From Octopus vulgaris (taxonomy: Eukaryota): 64,000 bases of DNA. Made by a program: the position numbers and the translations under genes. Below the pieces are notes generated by a model. It worked only from the letters and a program-made list of their open reading frames with translations. It was not told the origin of the DNA and did not search any database. The stretch covers positions 25,730,001 through 25,794,000 of the forward strand of contig OX597823.1 in NCBI GenBank assembly GCA_951406725.2. The letters run 5' to 3'. The first letter of the stretch is position 1. Each line of letters starts with the position of its first letter. Positions 8,300 to 64,000 of this stretch are shown piece after piece.

Positions 8300-10570
8300 A
8301 AATTAAGTACCAGTTACGCACTGGGGTCGTTGTAATCGACTTAATCCGTTTGTCTGTCCTTGTTTGTCCCCTCTGTGTTTAGCCCCTTGTGGGTAGTAAA
8401 GAAATAGGTACTTCGCCCGTCGCTACGTTTTGAGTATAAATTCCGCCGAGGTCGACGTTTCCTTTCACCCATTCGGTGTCGATAAAATAAGTACTAATTG
8501 AGCACTGGGTTGATGTAATCGATATATAGTCCTCCTGTGAATTTGCGGACCTTGTTGAAACAGTTATTACTATTATTAAGGCAGCGAGCTGGCTAAATAT
8601 ATACTTTCTTTTTACTCAATCCAAATTTGCAGTGTGTGTATTTCGTTCTTACATTGTCACCAGACTCTTTCGGCCCTTGTGGCCATTAAAAGAAATTTTT
8701 ATTATTAGATTGGCGGAATCGTTAAAGCGTTGGGCTACAGCTTTTTAAGTTGAGTGTTCAAATCTCGCCGAGATCAATTTTGCCTTCACCCTTCTGATTT
8801 CGAAAAAGTAAAGTAACGATCAAGTGATGGGGGTCGATTTAATCAGTTAACTCCTCTTTAAAAATTTCTGGCTGTATGCCTAATAATAACTTCAAATATA
8901 TGTACAGTATCTGAAATTTGGAGGAGGAGTACTTCATTGGTACTTTACTTTATCAAACCCGACAGGATGAAAGGCGGAGGTCACCTTCGCCTAATAATTT
9001 TTGCAGGGTTGATATAATAAACTATCAGCCAAGTCTTATCAGCTCACTTATCAGCCTGTCACTGAAATTCTGGCCTTGTTCTTACGTTTAAAATTATTAT
9101 AGGCAGTACATTGACAGATCTTTTCAATGTAGGATAAAATACTTTACGGTTTTTGTTCTAATACTGTTCTGAGTTCAAATCCTGGTGTCGATGAAATAAA
9201 GTACTCGTCAAGAATAGGGATCAATGACATCGACTTAATCCTGCTCTCAAAATTGCTAACCTTATATCAAAATTAAAAAAACATTAAAATGGCGGCGAGC
9301 TGGCAGATTCGTTAATCACCGGAAAAAATGCTTTGCGACATTTGTTCCGACTCTTTACGTTATGAACTCATATCCCATTGAAGTGAACTTTACCAGGATA
9401 AATAAAAGTAGGTCAAGTACTACGTCGATAGTTGTTGGTTTTATGCCATTACTAAGGTGGTGTGCAGGCTGAATCATTAGTGTGTCCGACTAAATGCTTA
9501 GCGGCATTTCTTCCGGCCCTTCACGTTCTGAGTTTAAATACCGCCGAGGTCAGCTTTGTCTTTCTTCCTTTTAGAGTCGATAAACTATAATACCAGTGAA
9601 GTACTGGATCGATGTAATCGACTAGCTCCACCCTCCCCACACACACTAAAAGTTTTACTGTGTGCCAAAATTTAAAACAATTATTATTGATATAAATAAA
9701 TGTTTCAAGTTTCGCCACAAAGTGTTCAAGTGGTACTTATTTTATCGACCTCGAAAGGCAAAGTCGACCTCAGCGAAATTTATACTCTGAACGTAACGAC
9801 GGGAGAAATATCGCTAAGCACTTCGTCTCGCGCGCAAACGATTCAGCCAGCTCACCGCCTTATAATACTGTAAATAATCATTTCTACTAAAGGCACAAGG
9901 CCTGAAATTTTCGGGTAAGAGGACTAGTCGATTACATCGACCCAGTGTGTTACTGTTAGTCGGGTTGATAAATTAAATACCCGAACGGATGAAAGGCAAA
10001 GCCAACATCAGAACGTAGTGACAGACGAAATACTCCTAAGCATTTCGGTCGGCGCGCTAACGATTCTGTCATCTCGCCGCCTTATATTACTGTAAAAAAT
10101 ACTTAAATCAAGGCGGCGAGCTGGCAGAAACGTTAGCACGCCGGGCGAAATGCTTAGCAGTATTTCGTCTGCCGTTACGTTCTCAGTTCAAATTCCGCCG
10201 AGGTCGACTTTGCCTTTCATCCTTTCGGGGTCGATAAATAAAGTACCAGTTACGCACTGGGGTCGATGTAATCGACTTAATCCCTTTCTCTCCTTGTTTG
10301 TTCCCTCTATGTTTAACCCCTTGTGGGTAATAAAGAAACAGATATTTCATCTGTCTTTACGTTCTGAGTTCAAATTCCGCCGAGGTCAACTTTGCCTTTC
10401 ATCCTTTCGGGGTCGATAAATTAAGTACCAGTTGCGTACTGGGGTCTATGTAATCGACTAGCCCTCTCCCCCAAAATTTCACGCTTTGTGCCTATAGTAG
10501 AAAGGATTATTTACAGTATTATAGGCGCCGAGCTGGCTGAATCGTTAGCGCCTAGAGTAGAAAAGAATAA
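8300..10570. mobile_element. Dense cluster of Octopus-type SINEs on both strands
   Basis: Repeated gagctggcaga / gttctgagttcaaat / ggggtcgat motifs; minus copies ~9725-10085 abut a composite plus copy 10109-10510. Confidence 0.85.
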
Positions 10571-32987: not shown

Positions 32988-35900
32988 AGTTCTCTAAATA
33001 TAAATCCCTTCCAAAAACAACTTTCCCAAACTATAAAACGGATCACTTCATCACCTAAATTGTTGCACGTCTTCTCAGATAAAATGGAAATTTTGTATCC
33101 TATTACTATCGAGGGATACACCAAATTCATCAAGAAGGAACTATACAAGTCTTATAAGCTGGCACCGACATCTACCCTTGACAATATCGACACCAACCAA
33201 TGTAAGCTTATGAACAAATTACACGTGTCCGATCGCAAAGAATTCAACTGCCCTACATCTCCACACTTCAACCTTAAGGATCATAACAATGACTTCATAA
33301 CTAAACCATCTATACGCCTCATATACCCTACTAAATCCAACCTAGGAAGCATAAATCAAAAATATTCTAGCTAAAATAATACCAATCGTCAAAGGGAAAT
33401 TGAACGTCAACTTATGGTCCTGTACAGGTGTAGTCATAACATGGTTTCATCTCTTAAGCAACAAAGACTCTTCTTTCCTACAGTTCGATATAAATAATTA
33501 CTATTCTTCTATTTCTTCCAAACTTCTTAATCAATCTCTCCTAGCTAGGAATCTAACTAACCTAACCCCACTAGAAATTAACATAATTCTTAATGCCCGT
33601 AAAACACTTATTTCTTTTGAGGACAAACCCTGGTGCCGGATCAACCGCTATAACAATAACCATAACAAATTATTTAACTTTACTATGGGATCATCCGACT
33701 CTGCCCAAGTAACCGTCTTCGTTGTGCTATACATACTCCACTGGCTCCGAATACATTTCCCTAAGATCAAGGGAGGCCTCTACAGAGATGACGCTTTGCT
33801 AGTCACCAAGGGCGTTAATAAATCCTCTTTAGAACTAGTTAGGTAAGATCTACACAATTTTTTTTCTAACATCAACCTATCTATTACTTTTGAAAATTCT
33901 CACAAAAAAATGTTTAGACATACCTTTAAACTTAGAAACCTACCAATACTCCCCATATAATGAACCTAACGAAGACCTTAAGTACTTAAACATTAACTCC
34001 AATCACAACCAATCTATCTTTGATAATATAGTTAAGGGTATCTCGATTCGTATATCTGACCTCTCATCTACTCAGGAAATATTCAATAACTACGTCCCAT
34101 ATTACAACCAAGCGCTTGCTGCCAGCGGCTTCTCCCAACAAATAAAATACATCTCTAATACTAGGCTCAAGCTACATATATCTCAAATAATTTCATAACG
34201 ACATACCAACCATCAGAATCCCACCAGACCACCCATAGGCTATACTGGAACCCCGGGAGAACCCAGATTAAGAAAACTTAGTCTCCACACGCACAAATAT
34301 AACACTAGGTCAAAATCTAAACCAACTAACAATAACGGACCATATTACGCCCCTCTAATTTCTAAAAATATAGATTACACTACCCCTAAGTAGCCACAAA
34401 AAGCAGTCGACGCTCTACTCTATTGTATACACCACCCCCGCCTTCTCACTAAACGTTAAGAACTTAGTTAAATCCTTTTTTAATATACTGGAACCCAACT
34501 TCTCGCGTCAGCATAAATATTACTCTACCTTTAATAGATCTACCTTAAAGCTATCCTATTCCTCCCCACCCAACATTTAGTCTATTATAACAGCCTCTAA
34601 TAGACGAAAACTTTCTATTATCAAACGTTAAACTGTAACAATTTTGAATACACGATCACCCAACATATACATAGCTCCAATATCGAACCCCATGCTTTAG
34701 ATCACAACGAAAACCCCACTAACACTAACCAGAATATTATTACAGATAGGATAAATAACAACAACGATAGAAATAGTAATAATAATAGTAATAATAATGT
34801 TAATAACATAGACCAATCTACCTCCATTTCTAACCTCTCCTTAGACAGTATTACCTCCTCCATTCATGAGGACCATCTGCCCTCTGCAAACAAATTACAG
34901 AAGGTCTAACGTAATTTATAAATGCACCGACCACAACACGTCACGCAATTCTACAACTGTATATATAGGGTCAACTATAAATTTTAAACAGCGATACGCT
35001 GTGCATCTCAATTCTTTTATATATAAGAAACGTAGTAAATCCACAACACTCGCCAGTCACATACATCATCTCAAAAATAGAAATATTCCATACATCTCGT
35101 CATGGTATATAATAGATTCAAGTCTTCCATATCAAGATCAACGTTCAGCCTGTAAGTTATACCTAAAAGAAGCATTCCACATATTAAAACACAACTCTTC
35201 AATACTACTAAATAAATGTAATAAAGCCCTAGGTACATGCAACCAACACTGTTTTCATTATCTTCAAATTTTACCACAAATCTAAATGCAACCTAAATCA
35301 TCACAGTATATATCTCGATCACCCCTGGGTAAAACTCCAGCAAACCTTTTTGATTTCACATTGTCTCCGTTTTTAATTTTTTAACTCTCCATTCGTACTT
35401 TTTAATTGTTTGATAATACATATGTGGATATATCTGTGTTTACATGTGTATGTATGTTTATGTGTGCGTATGTCCGCATGTGTTTGTGTCTATACATATA
35501 TCTATGGGTGGGTGGGGGGTGCATGTATATATATGCATATATGCGTATGAGTTTAAGTACATAACTATGCGGGTCTATATAACAGTGCATATACACACGT
35601 ATACATATGTATGTGCACGCGCGTGTATATCAATATACACTTCTTTTTTTCTCACTCTGATTCCTCAGGCCCCACTATCACATTAGCTAGTACAATAAAC
35701 AACTCCTATTTTTAGAAACTTAACCACTATATCTTATTTTTCCCTTCCTCTTTGAGGTTTGCTACTCACTTTAGTAACCCCCTGTACCATTCTCTGTACC
35801 CATCCCTCCACCTTAGTACCTTTCAAACATATCACCCCACCACTACTCCTCACACATATTCATTCCTTACGTTCTTATCTCTTCCTATCCCTCCCCCTAC

Positions 35901-39043: not shown

Positions 39044-39475
39044 TGCGAGCTGGCAGAAATGTTAGCACGCTGGATGAAATGCCTAGCGGTATCTCGCCCG
39101 TCGCTATGTTCTGAGTTCAAATTCCGCCGTGTTCGATTTTGCCTTTCGATCTTTCGGGGTCGATGAAATAAGTACCACTTACTCACTGGAGTCGATGTTA
39201 TCAACTTAATACTTTTGTCTGTCCTTCTTTGTTCCCTCTGTTTAGCCCCTTGTGGGCAATAAAGAAATAAGAATCGTTATCACGCTGGACGAAATGCCTA
39301 GCATTATCTCGCCTGTTGCTAGGTTCTGAGTTCAAATTCCGCCGTGTTCGATTTTGCCTTTCGATCTTTCGGGGTCGATGAAATAAGCACCAGTGAATCA
39401 CTGGGGTCGATGTAATTGACTAGTCCCCTCCCCCAACAAATTTCAGGCCTTGTGCCTATTGTAGAAAGGATTATA
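39044..39475 (+). mobile_element. Tandem Octopus-type SINE dimer
   Basis: Two consecutive SINE bodies sharing diagnostic variants (ccgtgttcgatttt). Confidence 0.85.
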
Positions 39476-43024: not shown

Positions 43025-43535
43025 CACGCTTAAATATTTAAGTTTGTGTATATGTGACTATAAGGATGCTGGCATGATTTATGCTTTTTGGTAAGGAGAG
43101 AATTTTGTCTCCAGATTTTATTATTTAGGGAGATTGAATGCCACAGCTCTACGTGAAAGCTGACCAGCTTTTCAACCTCGTCAAATACCAACGCCGGCCT
43201 CTGTGTGTATATATGTGTATGTATGTATGTATGTATGTATAAGTATACACCCACACATTTTATCACCTTTGCTTCTTTTTCTTGTTTCTCTTGACGCTGT
43301 TGTTGTAACTGTTGTCATAGCTGATGTTCTTATTTTCATTTTCTTCGATTCCTTTTGTTTTTCTTTCATCTCCCTGAACAATTCGTTGACAAGCTTCTTT
43401 CATTTACTTCGTTTCTTTTAAATTTATTTAAGGTACACCCTCGTTCTTTTTCCTCGTCTACCTTGTGGGCTGCTTAAACTCAGGGGCCTTGGGGCGCCGC
43501 CCCGGCTGCTCTCACTTCTCAGTGGGCTTGTGTGT
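43025..43535 (-). repeat. Dispersed repeat (probable MITE), copy A
   Basis: Homologous, in opposite orientation, to 48990-49452 (ORF track gives paralogous peptides ...KKMKIRT...MCGCILI). Confidence 0.8.
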
Positions 43536-47362: not shown

Positions 47363-47706
47363 GTTAAAAATCGGTTCTGGTACTTTTTGGTTATATCACC
47401 TCCGTTAAAAAATTGCAATTCAAAAATGGGGTTATCGCCCATATATAAAAAACCATCACTTTTTTTAAGTGAGCTTATATTAGTTTTTCTTGAGATTAAT
47501 TTACATTTAGGACATTTTATAAACTAGTATAAATACTATCTTCTTAATACAAAGCAAACATCGCAATTTAAAGATTGGTTGCAGAGTTAAATATTAAGAG
47601 AAAGCTTAATAAGAGAAATCTTAATATAAGAAAGCTTTTTCGAAGATAGTTCAGTCGAAAAGAGTCCATTTGCAAACGCATATACACACTCACACACACT
47701 AATAAT

Positions 47707-48989: not shown

Positions 48990-49452
48990 GGTAGGGGCAG
49001 CCCAAGGTCCATGAGTTTAAGTGGCCTACAAGCCCAACGAGGAAAAAATACGTGGGTGTACCTTAAAGTAATTTAATAGAAAAAAAATAATTGAAAAAAG
49101 CTTGTCCCAAGGGAGATGAAAGAAAAACGAAAGAATTCAAAGAAAATGAAAATAAGAACGTGTACTATGACAACAGATACAAGAACAACTTCAACAGAAA
49201 CAAGAAAAATAAGTAATGGTGATGAAATGTGTGGGTGTATACTTATATATACATACTTAAATACATACACACACACACACACACATATTTACATACACAG
49301 GCCGGCGTTGGTGATTGACGAGGTTGAAAAGCTGGTCAGTATTTAATCTCCCTAGGTAATAAAATCTGGAGACAATATTCTCTCCTTACCAAAAAATTAA
49401 AAAAAACTTAAATCATATCACCATCCTTATAGACTCATATACACGCACTTAA
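48990..49452 (+). repeat. Dispersed repeat (probable MITE), copy B, inside Merlin
   Basis: Inverted homolog of 43025-43535. Confidence 0.8.
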
Positions 49453-49538: not shown

Positions 49539-50479
49539 CACACAATGAACATGAAAAACGAAATGATGAAACATCGTTTTGAATCTGATATTTTTATAAC
49601 AAATCATATGAAGAATAAGATTAGATATCTTATGCCTATTGAGGAAGCCAAAAGTTAATGTGTTGAAGTATTGAATCAAAAGGATCTAACTCTTCTAATC
49701 CAGTCTTTTGTCGTCACATAAGCTTGCACATGAGGCCAGTAGACCTCTGTGAGAGCCATTTTGTCTTCTATTTTTTCTTTAAAATTCTTCCAAAGTTTTT
49801 CAATATTTTAGGTGTGAGCTCCATTAGTTGGATTGACAAAGTGTAGAGAATGATTCACATTGAGATGTTGAAAATGACCAATATTAATTATATTTTTATA
49901 TTCTGAACATTCGTCACTTATGATGGCAGTACCCGGTCTTATATTATCTGTTATTGGAAGAAGTGTTGCCACAGACCTGTTAACGTCCGACGCAATTTTT
50001 TGTTGGGTCCTCCGATCACTCTTGGGTTTGCCAAAATGTGTGCAGCACAAACTTCTCTCAAATAGTTATTCCAGTCAACCACGCAACTGGCTTTCATTTC
50101 AAGCTCACGTTCACAAAATTTGATACATGTCTTGCAAATGGACTCTTCCCGACTGAACTATCTTCGAAAAAGCTTTCTCAGAAAGAGAATATTTATTAAG
50201 ATTTAACTCTACAACGCATTTCAAAACTTGCGGTGGTTATTTTATATTATGAAGATAGTATTTATATTAGTTCTTAAAATGTCCTAAATGTAAATTAATC
50301 TCAAGAAAAATTAATAAGACATATATAAAGCACACTTGAAAAAAAGAGATGGTTTTTATATATGGGAGATAACCCCTTCTTTTAATGGCAATCTTTTAAT
50401 GTGGGTGAGATAACCAAAAGGTACCAACGTTCTTACTCTGTTGGGAAGAAATCTCGAAATAAACTGAATAATGACATAC

Positions 50480-51530: not shown

Positions 51531-53770
51531 AAATAAAAAACACCAGAAAGCTATTCAATAACACAGGGAAACAACAGACTCAGTTCACTGGACACCATAT
51601 GAGAAAAAAAAGTTTTGAGCACTTGGTGACAATTGGGAAACTGAAAGAAAGAAATCAGGGAAGCCAGTAGCACTTGAAAGACTGACCCAATAATGTGCTA
51701 GAAAGACTACCCCAATAATGTACTGTGTGTTAGATATAGGGGCAGGGAAGGCCAAGACTGTTAGAAGAAAGAGATTTAACCAAGTGTTTCTGGAATGGAC
51801 TTAAAAGGAATGAGTTTCGGCAATGCCTAATCAATTCTTAAAAGCATGGTTTCCACAAGTGTGAAAATATTTAACATAATGAAAAAATGATCATGAAGAT
51901 ATATAAGTATTTAAAGTGAAATAGAAATAAAACATTTGTAAAATGTAGAATTTTCATAGCTGCTGCATCACATCAGATATATGGATATAGTAATATAATA
52001 ACATAACATTGTAATAATTTAACATATAGCATAATAACAACATAATAATCACATAATAATATAACAGCATAACGTATAGTAAAAACAGAGCAACTTATTA
52101 ACAAAATTATAACAATATAAGATAATAATATAGTATAGTTGCTGTATAATTAGTACTTACAAATTAAACTCTACAGTTTATATTTAGCTCAATTTGTTTC
52201 TGTGTACTTCTGATTGAATCTTGAAAGTTAGACAGGAGAGGAATAATCAACAGATAGTACCTTACTATCTTTATTGTTAGCTCCAAGTTGTCCCTGATCT
52301 GGCAGACAGACCTATGATTCCATAAATGTCCTTAACAGTGGGAAATGATATATTTTTAAATACAGTGGGGGAGTTTGCAACAGGAATGAATGCTCTTCAA
52401 GTTCACAAATCTGAAGATATCAATGAGATAGTAATTGTTCTCTGCTTCTAGGTTTTTACTTATTAAAAACTGCTATCTCACAAATGTTCTCTTCCTAGGT
52501 ATTTTAACACTACAATTCTTGATCACTTCTTTCTGAAAGATAAACCGTAAGTCATTAATTTATTGACAGAGATAAAATTCATTGAAAATGCTATGCATAG
52601 TTAATGTATTATGTATTAGCAGTAGATGTTGATTCAGAAAATTGTGGAAAGCAAGCAACCAGGTAGACTGAATAAAACAGAACCTGTTACGTTTATTGCT
52701 TAAGTAATATTAATGGTTTTCAATTTCTCCCCAATTTTCTGAATGACACTATGCACTGAATAATATATTACCAACTATGAAAAAATTATATATGTAAATG
52801 TATTTTACCTGACACAGCTGGTCATTTATTTAAGATGGCAACTTTCATTGTAAATACCAGTTAGTTTTGTTTAATCAACTGTAAAATAATTATTAGAAGA
52901 ACCAGTAATATATCAATATTTAGATTTACCATAGATAATGACAGTCCACTCTGGGCCTTCAATTTCTACTTGATAAAGGAGCAAAGAATACATTACAAAA
53001 CATTATCACCAACTGTAAAAAAAGGCACAAAAATAGATTACCTATACAGTGGTAACTGATCATGCAAAGGGCAATATTCACCAACCCACATAATTTCTTC
53101 TACAAAGTGTGCAATTATTCCTAAACATGCAAACACACTGTGATACCTATTTCAACACCCCTGAATAATACAACATACCTATGGCCATAACTACAACATC
53201 ATCTTATAAATACCATCTCCCCTTGCTCAGTCCAAGTAAAAATAAATATGCACAAACATCTCAGAGGTAATTAGACACCACATGTTATAACATTTTAACA
53301 GTGTGGATATTACTCATAAGTACAATCCCCAAACTGGTTATATAATTTTTAAAAAACTGCACAAATCATGTCTACCAAATATTTGATTAATTATTTAAAA
53401 GCATCAAATGACACTAGTTTGCTTTAAAAAATAATTCTTTCAAACATGATAGTGTCTATTTACTTTAGAAATGTCTATGTATATACAAAACTATGAGAAA
53501 GTAACACATAAATCGATTTACAATTTACCAACTAAAAATATTGACCACCTCACATCAGAATTTAAACACTATTTACTATTGTAGCAATAACCATTTTAGC
53601 CATTTTGAAATGTGGCGCGAATTGGCAATATGACGTAATGTCGTATTGCCGAAGAGTTATCATTTTCGTTTTTTTCCATTGGTTAATATAACTGCTCATA
53701 TAAAGATTCTAGAAGTTTCGAAAAGAATATCTGTCATGGATTTCGATTCTTTTTAGTCAAGTTGAGCAGT

Positions 53771-53805
53771 TATAAAAACCCTGGATTTTGGAAGATAGTT
53801 CAGTG
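53771..53805 (+). promoter_or_regulatory. Putative core promoter (TATA + Inr) inside the TIR element
   Basis: TATAAAA at 53771 and TCAGT at 53800, canonical ~30-nt spacing. Confidence 0.5.
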
Positions 53806-54674
53806 TTCATTGGTAGTCACTCAACTCCACGTCACTCACTCTTTTGGAGACATCGGTAATTTTTATGCCATGTCCAAGTTAATCACAAATCTATTTTGAT
53901 TTGTTGGTTAATGTATTAGATAGAAAGAAGAAATTAGCTAAGGAATTAATAGTCGTTTTTCTCCGCGATAAAGTTATCTTTCTTACTGTAAAAAAATATA
54001 AAATGTTATATTATATAATAAAAATAATTAAAAGGAAATGTTTCTCTTCATGTTTGTTTTTCAACTGAGCATAGATAAATATGCATTTCTGTAATCTTTG
54101 ATTTATGTTTTTTATAGCGGTTTAAAGGACACGATTAAAATATTCAACATACATTGTCGTTGATGTAGCGTTCCATGCATATATGTCTCTATGATGTTAT
54201 AACTGTAGTTAGGGTTTTAGATATAATGATAACACTTGAGTATAAGTGACGTTGAATCATTATATTCTCCCTTACGCAGAGAGAAGACAGAATAAATAAT
54301 ATAACCTAAGAGAAAGCTTAAGGTAGAATAACCGAAAACCTCCGTAGGAAAAGTGGTGACCCCGACTAAAACAGCCTATAGGAAAACCTATAGAAAAAAA
54401 AAATTTTTTTAATAAAAAAAAAAAATTATAAACACCGACAGACTGGTGGAAAATTTAATAATATAATAAACATTAATTACAGAATTATTGCATAAATACT
54501 TTATTAACAAATAGTTAAAAGTAAGTTGAAACAAAAAAGAATGCTGAAGAAGAAACTTTAGAAGGAAAATTTTAGCTGCACTTTCTAGCAATATAAAAAT
54601 ATTTTGAGCTGTTAAAAGCTTAGTAACATAATGAGAAAAAAAAATTTTCCTTTGAGAAAATATTTATACATATA

Positions 54675-55034
54675 ATGGAGCAGAATTTAAAAGAATTTGA
54701 GATGTCATATTTCGATAGAAATTACACACAAGCTTCTGTGAATGTATTGCCTAGTCCTCCGTGGACAGGAGATACCGTCATTTGGTTGGCACAACTGGAG
54801 GTAAGCTTTAAAGCTAACAAAATTACAAATGAAGAACAAAAATACAATATAATGCTTAGCAATTTACCTCCACCTCTAAGTAAAGAAATTAGAGATTTGC
54901 TACTAAACCCTATCGAACCAGTTTTGTATTCTTCCATTAAAAGGGAAATATTGAAACGAACATCAAATTCAAAACAAAAAGAATCGAAATCCATGACAGA
55001 TATTCTTTTCGAAACTTCTAGAATCTTCATATGA
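54675..55034 (+). pseudogene. Truncated Gypsy gag N-terminal domain (DUF7041-like)
   Basis: LPSPPWTGDTVIWLAQLEVSFKANKITNEEQKY..LSNLP...IRDLLLNP....YSSIKREILKR fits the Gypsy gag 'PPFW..DP..WF.Q.E..F...IT' pattern; PBS-like TGGTGACCCCGAC at 54354; the last ~19 codons come from the right TIR. Confidence 0.75.
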
Positions 55035-57006
55035 GCAGTTATATTAACCAATGGAAAAAACGAAAATGATAACTCTTCGGCAATACGACATTACGTCATA
55101 TTGCCAATTCGCGCCACATTTCAAAATGGCTAAAATGGTTATTGCTACACTATAAGTCTTGAAAACTTACAGTTTATTTTAACTTAAACTCTTTATAACA
55201 AAAAGGATTTGAACCTTTTCTTTTAAGATCTGTGTATGTACAGATATTTGTGTACATACAGTGAGAAAACTGCAGTAATACCCAGAATCTTCCACCTCCA
55301 TGTCACCTTTTGTATGGGTGGAATTTTGTCTTGTCTGTGGTTTGCAACAAGTTGTTCTATAAGAATTTCCAGTTTTCCTCTATGTCTCCATCTCATCCTC
55401 AATTTTTGTGAAATTTTCAAATTTGTGTTTCTCTGAATTCTTGCCTATTCAACAGTTCTTCAGGTTTCTATAACTTTCTTCTCCAACTTGTCTTGTGTCT
55501 CTGAGTTGACACAGCTCTTACTCTGAAGTCACTAGTTACTAAGCCATCTCCAGAGAAAAACTTAGCATTTACAACTATCAGCCTCTTTCATTTCCCCAAG
55601 AGTATGAAATCTTGTGTGTTCGCCTGATTGTAGAAAATCAAATGATTTTGGTTGGTTTGTAGAAGTAAGTTGCAAATTATCAAGACATTAAAGCTGGGCA
55701 GATGGATCTATAATACACAAATGGGGAATGTCATCCTTCTCCAAGGTAAAAACATCATGCTCAAATATACTATACCCAGCAATTTTCTCTTTTTATATTT
55801 TGTGCATGCAAGTGTGATAATGTTTATGTACAGCATTTTTCTTTCCACATTTAACTTTTAAATATATGATATTAAAAAAATTTTATGTGAAAAAGCTTCC
55901 AATTCAGCCAGTGTAATTCATGTTTTAAATTGAATGAATGAATTGAACAAAGTAGTTATAATAATGATTTTCACTATTGATACAAGTGAAACAATAACAG
56001 ACCTCCATTACCAGGCATGACTATATGGTAAAAAAGATTGCTTCATTCTCAAGTAGTTTAAGGTTCAATTCCACTGCACAGAACTTTTGGTAAATTTTAG
56101 TCTCAAATGCTTTGTGAGAGTAATTTGGTCAGTTAGACATCTCATCAAGCTCATGCATATATACATGTATCTTTGTGTATTTGTGTCCATGTGAATGTTT
56201 GTTACAGCATCAGTTGTCAGAACCAGAGTTGTATAAAAAAGAGTGTAACTCAGTGAATGATTCAACAAATCTATATCGATGTCATACCTCAGACTAAAAT
56301 AAATACCTATGTCCATGATATCGACTAAAATCCTTCAAATTGGTACCTCAGCCTTGTCACAATCTAATTACTGAAGCCAGTAAAAGAATAAAATAATATC
56401 CTGTAACTATACCAACTTAAGAGAATGATTTAAAGAGTATACACCGATATTAACTTTACTAACTCAGAAGGAATACTTTCTCCTTAGCCAATATTTCTTC
56501 CAACAAAATAGTAGGGAAATATCTGAAAAGTATCCATTCAAAAGAGACAAAAGCAACATTTGGAAAACCAACGTGTGGGAAATTGTATTTCACATAATGA
56601 CAAAACACAAAACCATTCAAGTTCAATGATAAGATTGTACAAACATGTTTGGGATGACAAACACTGATCCTAGACAAAGTAACCATACTAAAAACCTTGT
56701 ATGATGTATCAATTCAGCTTTATGACATCTTATTTAGAGGTTTACTCCTTTGCAAACCAGAAGCAAGGAATTTCTACCACATGTCTGCTCAAAAGGTAGA
56801 AAGCAGCATCTGACAACAAAACTAAGCAATACAAAAACAAAACTGAAGATATTAGTGACAATATTGCTGACTGCAGAGAATTTCTTTGAGTATCATTTCA
56901 TAAGATATGATGTGGTAGACAGCAACTTTTAGTATATATAAAAAAAACACAGTCAAACATATTGAAACAGATGGCTCAAAAGAACATTGGTGGAAGAGAA
57001 AAATAT

Positions 57007-62779: not shown

Positions 62780-64000
62780 AAGAAACTGGCTTGGTAGGAC
62801 TGGAAGAACGGTGGTAGCAGGGAAGTGTATCAGACTGCCAGAAGGGAAGCTAGGAGGCAGGTTTATTTAGCCAAAGGGGAAGCAGATAAGAAAAAATTTG
62901 CCAATGTTCTGCACCGTGAGGACCAAAGACTTGAGATATTTCGTGTTGCACGACAGTGTAAGAGAGAATCGTGATGTGGTAGGAGAGAAATGTGTTCGCA
63001 TGGATGATGGTTCACTTGCGCTAAATGAGGATGCAAAGAGAGAGGTTTGGAGACACCACTATGAAAGGTTGCTGAATAAAGAAAATGAATGGGAGAAAGA
63101 GATTCTGCCAAATGTTGACCTAACAGAGAGACCAGCTATCCGAGTTGACAGTACCTTGGTAGATAAGGCAATTAGAAGTATGAAGACAGGGAAAGCTCCC
63201 AGCCCATCAGGAATTACTGTAGAGATGCTCAAAATATCTGGCAGTGTTAGCTATAGCCTAGTCACCCGTATAGTTAACCAGGGGATACACGAAGGAGTCA
63301 TACCCAATGACTGGTGTAGCAGCATAATAGTCAACTGCTACAAAGGTAAAGGTGACGCTTTAGATACAAATAATTACAGAGGTATTAAGCTGTTGGATCA
63401 GGTAATGAAGGTCACTGAGAGGGTCATAGCCCAACTGATTAGGGAAAGAGTTAGCTTGGTTGAGATGCAGTTTGGTTTCATGCCAGGGAAAAGCACCACT
63501 GATGCCATATTTCTGGTAAGACAGCTGCAGGAGAAATACCTAGCCAAAGATAAGCCTCTGTACCTGGTTTTCATTGACATGGAGAAAGCCTTTGACAGGG
63601 TCCCCCAATCCCTTATCTGGTGGTCAATGAGATAACTAGGGATAGATGAATAGTTAGTGAGAGCTGTGCAAGCCATGTACAGGGATGCTGTAAGTAAGGT
63701 GATGGTTGGCAATGAGTACAGTGAAGAATTCAGAGTAGAGGTAGGGGTCCACCAAGGTTCAGTCCTCAGCCCCCCTCATATTTATTATAGTCCTCCAGGC
63801 AATAATGGAGGAATTCAAGACAGGATGCCCCTGGGAGCTCCTCTATGCTGATGACCTTGTTCTAATTGCTGAGTCACTATCAGAACTAGAGAATTTTCAA
63901 GTGTGGAAACAAGGATTAGAATTGAAGGGCCTTAGAATCAACCTAGCTAAAACCAAAGTCCTAATAAGTAGAAAGGCAGACAAACCATAAATCCCTTCAG
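62780..64000 (+). mobile_element. RTE-clade LINE reverse transcriptase region, disrupted, runs off right edge
   Basis: GKAPSPSGI, NYRGIKLL, QFGFMPGKSTTDAIF, FIDMEKAFDRV, GVHQGSVLSP, LLYADDLVL with stops/frameshifts. Confidence 0.9.

Follow-up and report, generated by a model that had tools for sequence, protein, structure and literature searches.

We analyzed a 64,000-nucleotide stretch of the Octopus vulgaris genome (GenBank assembly GCA_951406725.2, contig OX597823.1, positions 25,730,001 to 25,794,000 of the forward strand), referred to below as the window; all coordinates are positions in the window. The subject of the analysis is a 1570-bp inserted unit at 53580 to 55149. This unit combines parts of a Gypsy long terminal repeat (LTR) retrotransposon, namely, a predicted 5' LTR, a primer-binding site (PBS), a leader, and the 5' part of gag, with an inverted copy of its own left end, and it is flanked by a 4-bp target site duplication (TSD). 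An earlier reading of the sequence (the original prediction) had proposed a Gypsy/Ginger intermediate at this place. We conclude that the unit is probably a cDNA of an Octopus element of the CsRn1 clade that acquired two U3 ends by template switching and was integrated by the integrase of its own family. The features of the locus are as follows.

53576 to 53579, plus strand: left copy of the TSD, CTAT (from comparison of the flanks; chance level, 0.007).
53580 to 55149, plus strand: whole inserted unit, 1570 bp, TGTAGC...GCTACA.
53580 to 54352, plus strand: predicted 5' LTR (773 bp, TGT...AAA) of a Gypsy element of the CsRn1 clade, then 1 spacer base and the PBS; its predicted extent is long for the clade.
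53580 to 53754, plus strand: left arm of the inverted pair, the first 175 bp of the predicted U3.
53771 to 53804, plus strand: TATA box and initiator (Inr)-like TCAGT at canonical spacing, predicted LTR promoter and U3/R border (2.1% of resamples).
53856 to 54279, plus strand: candidate GT-AG intron of the original prediction (such a donor and acceptor pair in 12.5% of resamples).
54291 to 54296, plus strand: AATAAA, weak candidate polyadenylation signal (11.9% of resamples).
54354 to 54366, plus strand: PBS, 13 nt, tRNA-Trp type, the pattern of the clade (PMC2582038); 72 of 79 relatives have such a PBS ahead of gag.
54367 to 54674, plus strand: untranslated leader, AT rich (GC content, 0.23).
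54675 to 54984, plus strand: DUF7041 gag, 5' part with about 103 of some 280 codons (tblastn of P0003, residues 1 to 103, against 54675 to 54983, 84%); the reading frame extends into the right arm, to a stop at 55034.
54976 to 54984, plus strand: junction microhomology, 9 nt, common to gag and the reverse strand of 53746 to 53754.
54976 to 55149, minus strand: right arm, in which bp 1 to 174 of the predicted U3 recur in inverted orientation up to the exact LTR terminus.
55150 to 55153, plus strand: right copy of the TSD, CTAT.

The unit has the extent and termini given in the original prediction, whose span of 53576 to 55153 comprises the unit and both CTAT copies. Its arms align in inverted orientation over 175/174 bp with 98.9% identity, and the two differences that had been noted between them are a substitution and, in a T run, an indel. 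The CTAT seen on both flanks is indeed a direct 4-bp duplication, which the fifth base does not extend; two random flank 4-mers would match by chance with a P value of 0.007. Because the duplication is direct and the right terminus is exact, the inverted end predates the insertion, and the unit was likely inserted whole, in one step, by a Gypsy-type integrase that left the 4-bp TSD. By published criteria, a TSD combined with nearly identical outer ends marks an insertion as derived from template switching by reverse transcriptase (RT) (PMC1950507). The arms contain 8 CpG per 175 bp, compared with 2 and 1 per kb in the flanks, and this content fits a young insertion. There was no second copy of the unit within the window, and no interrupted older repeat was matched in the window by the flanks, which thus provide no in-window paralogue of the empty site. 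The 24-nt left-end pattern had 0 matches in metagenome contigs, an Rfam scan of 52500 to 56500 gave 0 matches at an E value of ≤1, and the RNA fold of 54260 to 54375 was unremarkable (z, -0.55).

The same boundaries bear on two explanations that place the inversion after integration or outside the genome. In the first, an ordinary direct-LTR copy was inserted, and later fold-back repair synthesis, with the copy's left LTR as template, replaced the right part. Near-identical arms agree with this, and microhomology junctions are typical of repair. However, the copying would need to halt precisely at LTR base 1 and then reconnect with the TSD in its direct orientation. On the right, the flank is CTAT and not the left flank in reverse complement, and the predicted U5 end (AAA) lacks homology by which the return could be guided; we regard this course of events as very unlikely. 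In the second, the inversion would be an assembly or library fold-back artefact, which, judged from the assembled sequence, appears highly improbable: the arms differ at two positions, the inversion halts at the exact LTR terminus, and the right arm is followed by the direct 4-bp duplication and then by unique sequence, whereas a fold-back chimera would run on into the inverted flank. The best share of sampled words among the 24 runs listed was 0.51, with no RNA run listed as a holder, and this value for unplaced words is evidence neither for nor against an artefact.

The left 773 bp, from TGT at 53580 to AAA at 54350 to 54352, read as a predicted 5' LTR that is separated by one base from the PBS (AAA-G-PBS). 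Chance levels for the motifs in this segment were derived by resampling it 5000 times under a Markov-1 model. The TATA box and Inr of the original prediction were found at the expected positions (TATAAAA at 53771 and TCAGT at 53800), and their spacing arises in 2.1% of the resamples; the promoter is the only one of the motifs tested that is modestly above chance. The proposed GT...AG intron and the AATAAA at 54291 exist as letters (GT at 53856 and AG at 54278 to 54279 in the case of the intron), but a donor and acceptor pair occurs in 12.5% of the resamples and an AATAAA within the last 80 nt occurs in 11.9%. Given these frequencies, both are present as motifs that do not exceed chance, and the intron was rejected as unsupported. 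As a separate observation, a short motif at 53689 to 53700, within the left arm, reappears inverted at 53763 to 53774, a position immediately upstream of the predicted LTR's TATA box and extending into it.

The Gypsy-type PBS that had been noted at 54354, TGGTGACCCCGAC, was confirmed and is complementary to tRNA-Trp. Downstream of the leader, an open reading frame (ORF) of 119 amino acids (54675 to 55034) consists of about 103 gag codons, with the remainder read from the right arm, in agreement with the description of a gag N terminus running via an A-rich junction into the right repeat. A profile search with this ORF, as the original prediction had suggested, identified DUF7041 (PF23055) with an E value of 7e-17. 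Its nearest proteins are from Octopus, with values of 93 to 94% for O. vulgaris, 80 to 84% for O. sinensis, and, over the covered part, 93% for O. bimaculoides. A full-length Octopus relative of 280 amino acids (P0003) has a CX2HX9CX3C motif at its C terminus; this knuckle was found in P0003, in P0005, and in 140 of 164 collected proteins, and the gag of the window breaks off upstream of it. In an O. vulgaris gene model (P0019), the same gag is joined to a DTG protease that matches the protease of P0102 at 46% (E value, 1e-13). A HMMER search retrieved 6563 gag relatives at an E value of ≤0.001, and protease, RT, or integrase was present on 6 of the 8 long distant relatives scanned. An alignment of gag against viral contigs gave 12 stretches, none of which was confirmed as a relative.

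These data connect the unit with the CsRn1 clade, for which a CHCC knuckle, a tRNA-Trp PBS, and a 4-bp TSD are characteristic (PMC2582038, PMC3630058). The unit resembles CsRn1, PwRn1, AgCR, and Kabuki in its tRNA-Trp PBS, DUF7041 gag, and TGT start, in the AAA with which the predicted LTR ends, and in a 4-bp TSD that goes with no strong preference for a target; the CHCC knuckle is a feature of the full-length Octopus relative of its gag. It differs from them in that (i) an inverted partial left end takes the place of the 3' LTR, (ii) gag is cut at about codon 103, (iii) pol and a polypurine tract (PPT) are absent, and (iv) the predicted LTR, at 773 bp, and the leader, at about 310 bp, are long for the clade. 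There is no match to pol in the window, and no match to an integrase or transposase in the unit or the window. Because the set of direct LTRs, PPT, and pol (protease, RT, RNase H, and integrase) is thus lacking, the unit is, on present sequence data, a derivative of the CsRn1 clade and not a canonical member. With no pol, PPT, or 3' R, it would be dead as a retroelement, incapable of further retrotransposition, and is expected to be single copy. LTRharvest requires direct repeats. For O. bimaculoides, 15 CsRN1 families are listed, all from LTRharvest clusters (PMC6238403, supplement 3).

To place the ends of the unit in context, we fetched 79 loci with a related gag (31 to 35% identity, from the best 80 of 312 matches); by contig-name count, 54 of them come from one assembly. 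A PBS was located in 72 of the 79 loci, and 48 have direct LTRs. A 4-bp TSD was found in 45 of these 48 under a fixed-end rule, which tests a 4-bp match for as many as two starts and four lengths of spacer and so slightly favors 4-bp calls; a sliding-end rule applied to the same 48 loci gave 29 TSDs of 4 bp, 10 of 5 bp, 3 of 6 bp, and 1 of 3 bp, with 4 loci having none and 1 lacking a start. All 45 relatives with a 4-bp TSD begin with TGTAG, TGTGG, or TGTTG, and their LTRs end in CA (27 loci) or TA (18 loci). An inverted copy of the PBS-adjacent end was detected in 0 of the 79 relatives; inverted matches were seen in 5, all in flanking repeats beyond the LTR, and reexamination of 9 long loci revealed a direct copy in 3 and an inverted one in 0. 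Three of the loci (L065 and L069, of about 2.2 kb, and L067, of about 2.5 kb) are internally deleted CsRn1-type copies with near-identical direct LTRs; L065 and L069 have one TSD in common and likely represent a single locus from two assemblies.

The relatives also clarify the CA dinucleotide that the original prediction had reported as missing before the PBS. The bases there are indeed AAA-G, a combination found in 1 relative locus (AAAG), but the absence of CA is not anomalous: it is absent in 31 of 71 loci and in 12 of the 28 related families with a PBS, and CsRn1-clade termini are known to have changed from TGT...ACA to TGT...AAA or TGT...ATA (PMC2582038), so that the predicted LTR has an ordinary end for the clade beside the PBS. 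The idea of a missing CA as an anomaly was accordingly rejected.

A quite different explanation holds that the arms are true terminal inverted repeats (TIRs) of a Ginger2-like or other TIR-bounded element that captured, or shrank to, a U5-PBS-gag piece of a CsRn1 element and was moved by a transposase acting in trans. Like the unit, Ginger1, Ginger2, and Tdd elements have a 4-bp TSD and inverted termini (TGTNR...YNACA) of comparable length (Bao et al. 2010, PMC2836005). The 175/174-bp arms with TGTAG ends agree with the TIRs of Ginger1 (40 to 270 bp, TGTNR) as well as those of Ginger2 (45 to 297 bp; 180 bp in a snail family), and GT-AG introns are frequent in Ginger1 transposase genes (PMC2836005). 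The great length of the left part relative to the LTRs of related elements also favors this view. On the other side, agreement with Ginger2/Tdd (TIRs of about 45 to 300 bp, TGTNR, and a 4-bp TSD) is nondiscriminating, since TGT ends and a 4-bp TSD are equally CsRn1 traits. Target sites differ: Ginger1 has TSDs of CCGG or CCGT/ACGG, compared with CTAT here, and the RTATAY target preferred by Ginger2/Tdd, a preference known from Nematostella alone, is matched by A-CTAT-A at 1 of 6 positions (PMC2836005). The interior of the unit is a PBS and gag, whereas Ginger1 carries a Gypsy-integrase-like transposase, for which there is no match in the unit or in the window, and the unit has no known sibling copies. 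In addition, a second, hidden left junction would be required, yet AAA-G-PBS is exactly as in a CsRn1 LTR; the tail created by the junction with the right arm is present in 0 of 10 close proteins; and the intron does not exceed chance. Overall, we consider a TIR-bounded origin unlikely. GingerRoot elements have 6-bp TSDs, and gag is not mentioned in the accessible part of their description (PMC6839031), in contrast to the 4-bp TSD and gag of the unit.

The Gypsy/Ginger framing of the original prediction is therefore mostly explained away, because a TGT start, a TSD of 4 bp, and the lack of CA are normal features of the CsRn1 clade; neither Ginger target fits. Of its more specific proposals, integration of the whole unit by a Gypsy/Ginger-type integrase is supported as far as the Gypsy type is concerned (TSD and termini) and not for Ginger (target, lack of a transposase match), and the two options that involved a TIR family are disfavored by the window without a transposase and the close proteins without the junction tail. 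The option that it had listed first, a template switch using two U3 ends, is supported by the direct TSD, the exact TGT termini, the near-identical arms, and the 9-nt microhomology.

This microhomology (54976 to 54984), whose membership in gag was judged from the codons of relatives, is where gag and the right arm meet. When the two sequences were joined at random 200,000 times, 9 nt was reached in 6 cases (P = 3e-5). Because the copied arm ends 16 bp before the TATA box, it lies wholly inside the predicted U3. Nine of the 10 close proteins reach the breakpoint, and all 9 go on in gag, one of them in a shifted frame; none of the 10 has a tail derived from the arm, and a tail search with residues 80 to 119 found no candidate in a sparse sample of proteins of 65 to 209 amino acids. 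In a protein of O. bimaculoides with the same gag (P0009), the frame shifts within the A run at which the window copy is broken, suggesting a slippage hot spot.

We therefore return to the explanation that we hold to be the probable one, a template-switch cDNA with two U3 ends. In the proposed mechanism, a nascent plus strand primed at the PPT would pause after about 175 nt at the T run and anneal to the A run in the gag of a copackaged RNA; it would then be extended back through the PBS, U5, and R and, after the usual end jump, through U3. By a mirror route, a plus strand growing through gag could jump onto a spare plus-strand strong-stop DNA, giving an identical product; such spare DNAs build up in Ty3/Ty1 particles (PMC5371799). 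Both ends of the product would be set by PPT cleavage, each presenting CA-3' to the integrase, whereas the U5 end of the clade itself is noncanonical (AAA); two CA-3' ends may thus suit the integrase at least as well as the AAA end. The unit is probably a by-product made once and not a new kind of transposon.

Alternatively, two cDNAs may have been integrated head to head by one intasome via their U3 ends, their inner ends being joined by microhomology-mediated end joining with loss of the intervening sequence. The same anatomy is predicted in this case (a direct TSD, two exact U3 termini, and the 9-nt microhomology), and two source copies could explain the two arm differences. It demands, however, two cDNAs at one site and two long resections. 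Moreover, the arms are 98.9% identical, whereas annotated Octopus gags of this family differ from that of the window by 6 to 30% in protein, and randomly chosen donors would presumably often differ more. We therefore give this scenario little credence.

Comparison with other systems in which inverted or switched LTR-retrotransposon products arise is instructive for the template-switch explanation. DIRS elements have inverted terminal repeats around gag, use a tyrosine recombinase, and have no tRNA PBS and usually no TSD; the unit differs in its PBS, 4-bp TSD, and Gypsy gag and shows no recombinase match. The insertions attributed to template switching by Sabot and Schulman (2007, PMC1950507) likewise have one TSD round the whole unit and near-identical outer ends, but in them two elements are fused in the same orientation, with three direct LTRs, whereas the unit would reflect a strand-changing switch and has U3 ends facing inward. 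Inversion circles formed by auto-integration (Ty1; SISYPHUS of Arabidopsis, PMC7197481) are also inverted LTR-retrotransposon by-products that arise within the particle; they are circular, with the junction at the exact LTR end, in contrast to the mid-U3 microhomology and the linear, TSD-flanked insertion seen here. No description of a TSD-flanked U3-U3 retrotransposon insertion was found in the open-licence literature, and neither "inversion" nor "inverted" occurs in the text of a paper on strand-transfer errors of human immunodeficiency virus (PMC12657518).

A number of points weigh against the template-switch explanation. (i) The predicted LTR of 773 bp contrasts with LTRs of 157 to 241 bp in the relatives, and it is far longer than the published LTRs of the clade, of 179/180 and 381 bp (PMC2582038, PMC3630058); its occurrence as a direct repeat in other Octopus copies is a prediction of this explanation. 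(ii) The 175-bp arm lies within the TIR range of Ginger2 (PMC2836005). (iii) From one sequence, the template-switch route and integration from two donors would be indistinguishable. (iv) Microhomology junctions also result from end joining and from gap-repair capture by DNA transposons. (v) The protein sample is sparse, and a frame of 119 amino acids may escape annotation. (vi) The 79 relatives are distant and dominated by one assembly, and 31 of them fell outside the direct-LTR class of the main script because the contig was short or the PBS or second end was missing; because the relatives were ranked for a full-length gag, products broken inside gag were left out of the sample.

As a single dead copy, the unit is of little consequence for its host. 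It is a clean fossil of a strand-changing error of reverse transcription, and it illustrates that one event can plausibly provide an LTR element with inverted ends and a valid TSD. Such products resemble Ginger elements or miniature inverted-repeat transposable elements and are invisible to direct-LTR finders, which is a warning for annotation. An origin of the Ginger1 TIRs from two LTRs in opposite orientation has been proposed, the chain of events being called unclear (PMC2836005). The route of Bao et al. needs two insertions, and the unit suggests that a single reverse-transcription event could suffice; it retains gag and not integrase, however, and there is no sign of a second move. Should the junction prove to be multicopy, the unit would represent a new TIR-bounded, gag-carrying family. 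It is conceivable, if improbable, that the unit is one of many: CsRn1 elements whose U5 ends are weak (AAA type) would repeatedly generate U3-U3 cDNAs in Octopus, and at least one product, through a switch downstream of integrase or through help in trans, would now spread as a TIR-bounded DNA element. An LTR-to-TIR conversion would then have been caught in progress, supplying the step that is missing from the proposed origin of Ginger1.

Several other repeats were observed in the window. An inverted pair at 47378 to 47675 and 50132 to 50426 is 79% identical and has GGTAC...GTACC ends; inside it, ORF fragments at 49811 to 50157 on the minus strand have a weak match, below the cutoff, to an ISXO2/IS1595 transposase (E value, 0.004). 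This pair is likely an old DNA transposon of the Merlin type. A second inverted pair of about 340 bp (43160 to 43493 and 49001 to 49339, 80% identical) has its right arm inside the GGTAC pair, so that the two are interleaved, and it possibly consists of two separate copies of one small repeat. A reverse-transcriptase fragment at 62871 to 63632 on the plus strand (PF00078; E value, 3.5e-11) and a weak GIY-YIG match at 34845 to 35282 on the plus strand (E value, 0.0015) are likely remnants of non-LTR or Penelope-type elements. Finally, a dispersed repeat family resembling short interspersed elements occupies about 10 places between 2418 and 39443 (for example, 10116 to 10473 and 39045 to 39435), in places as adjacent pairs.

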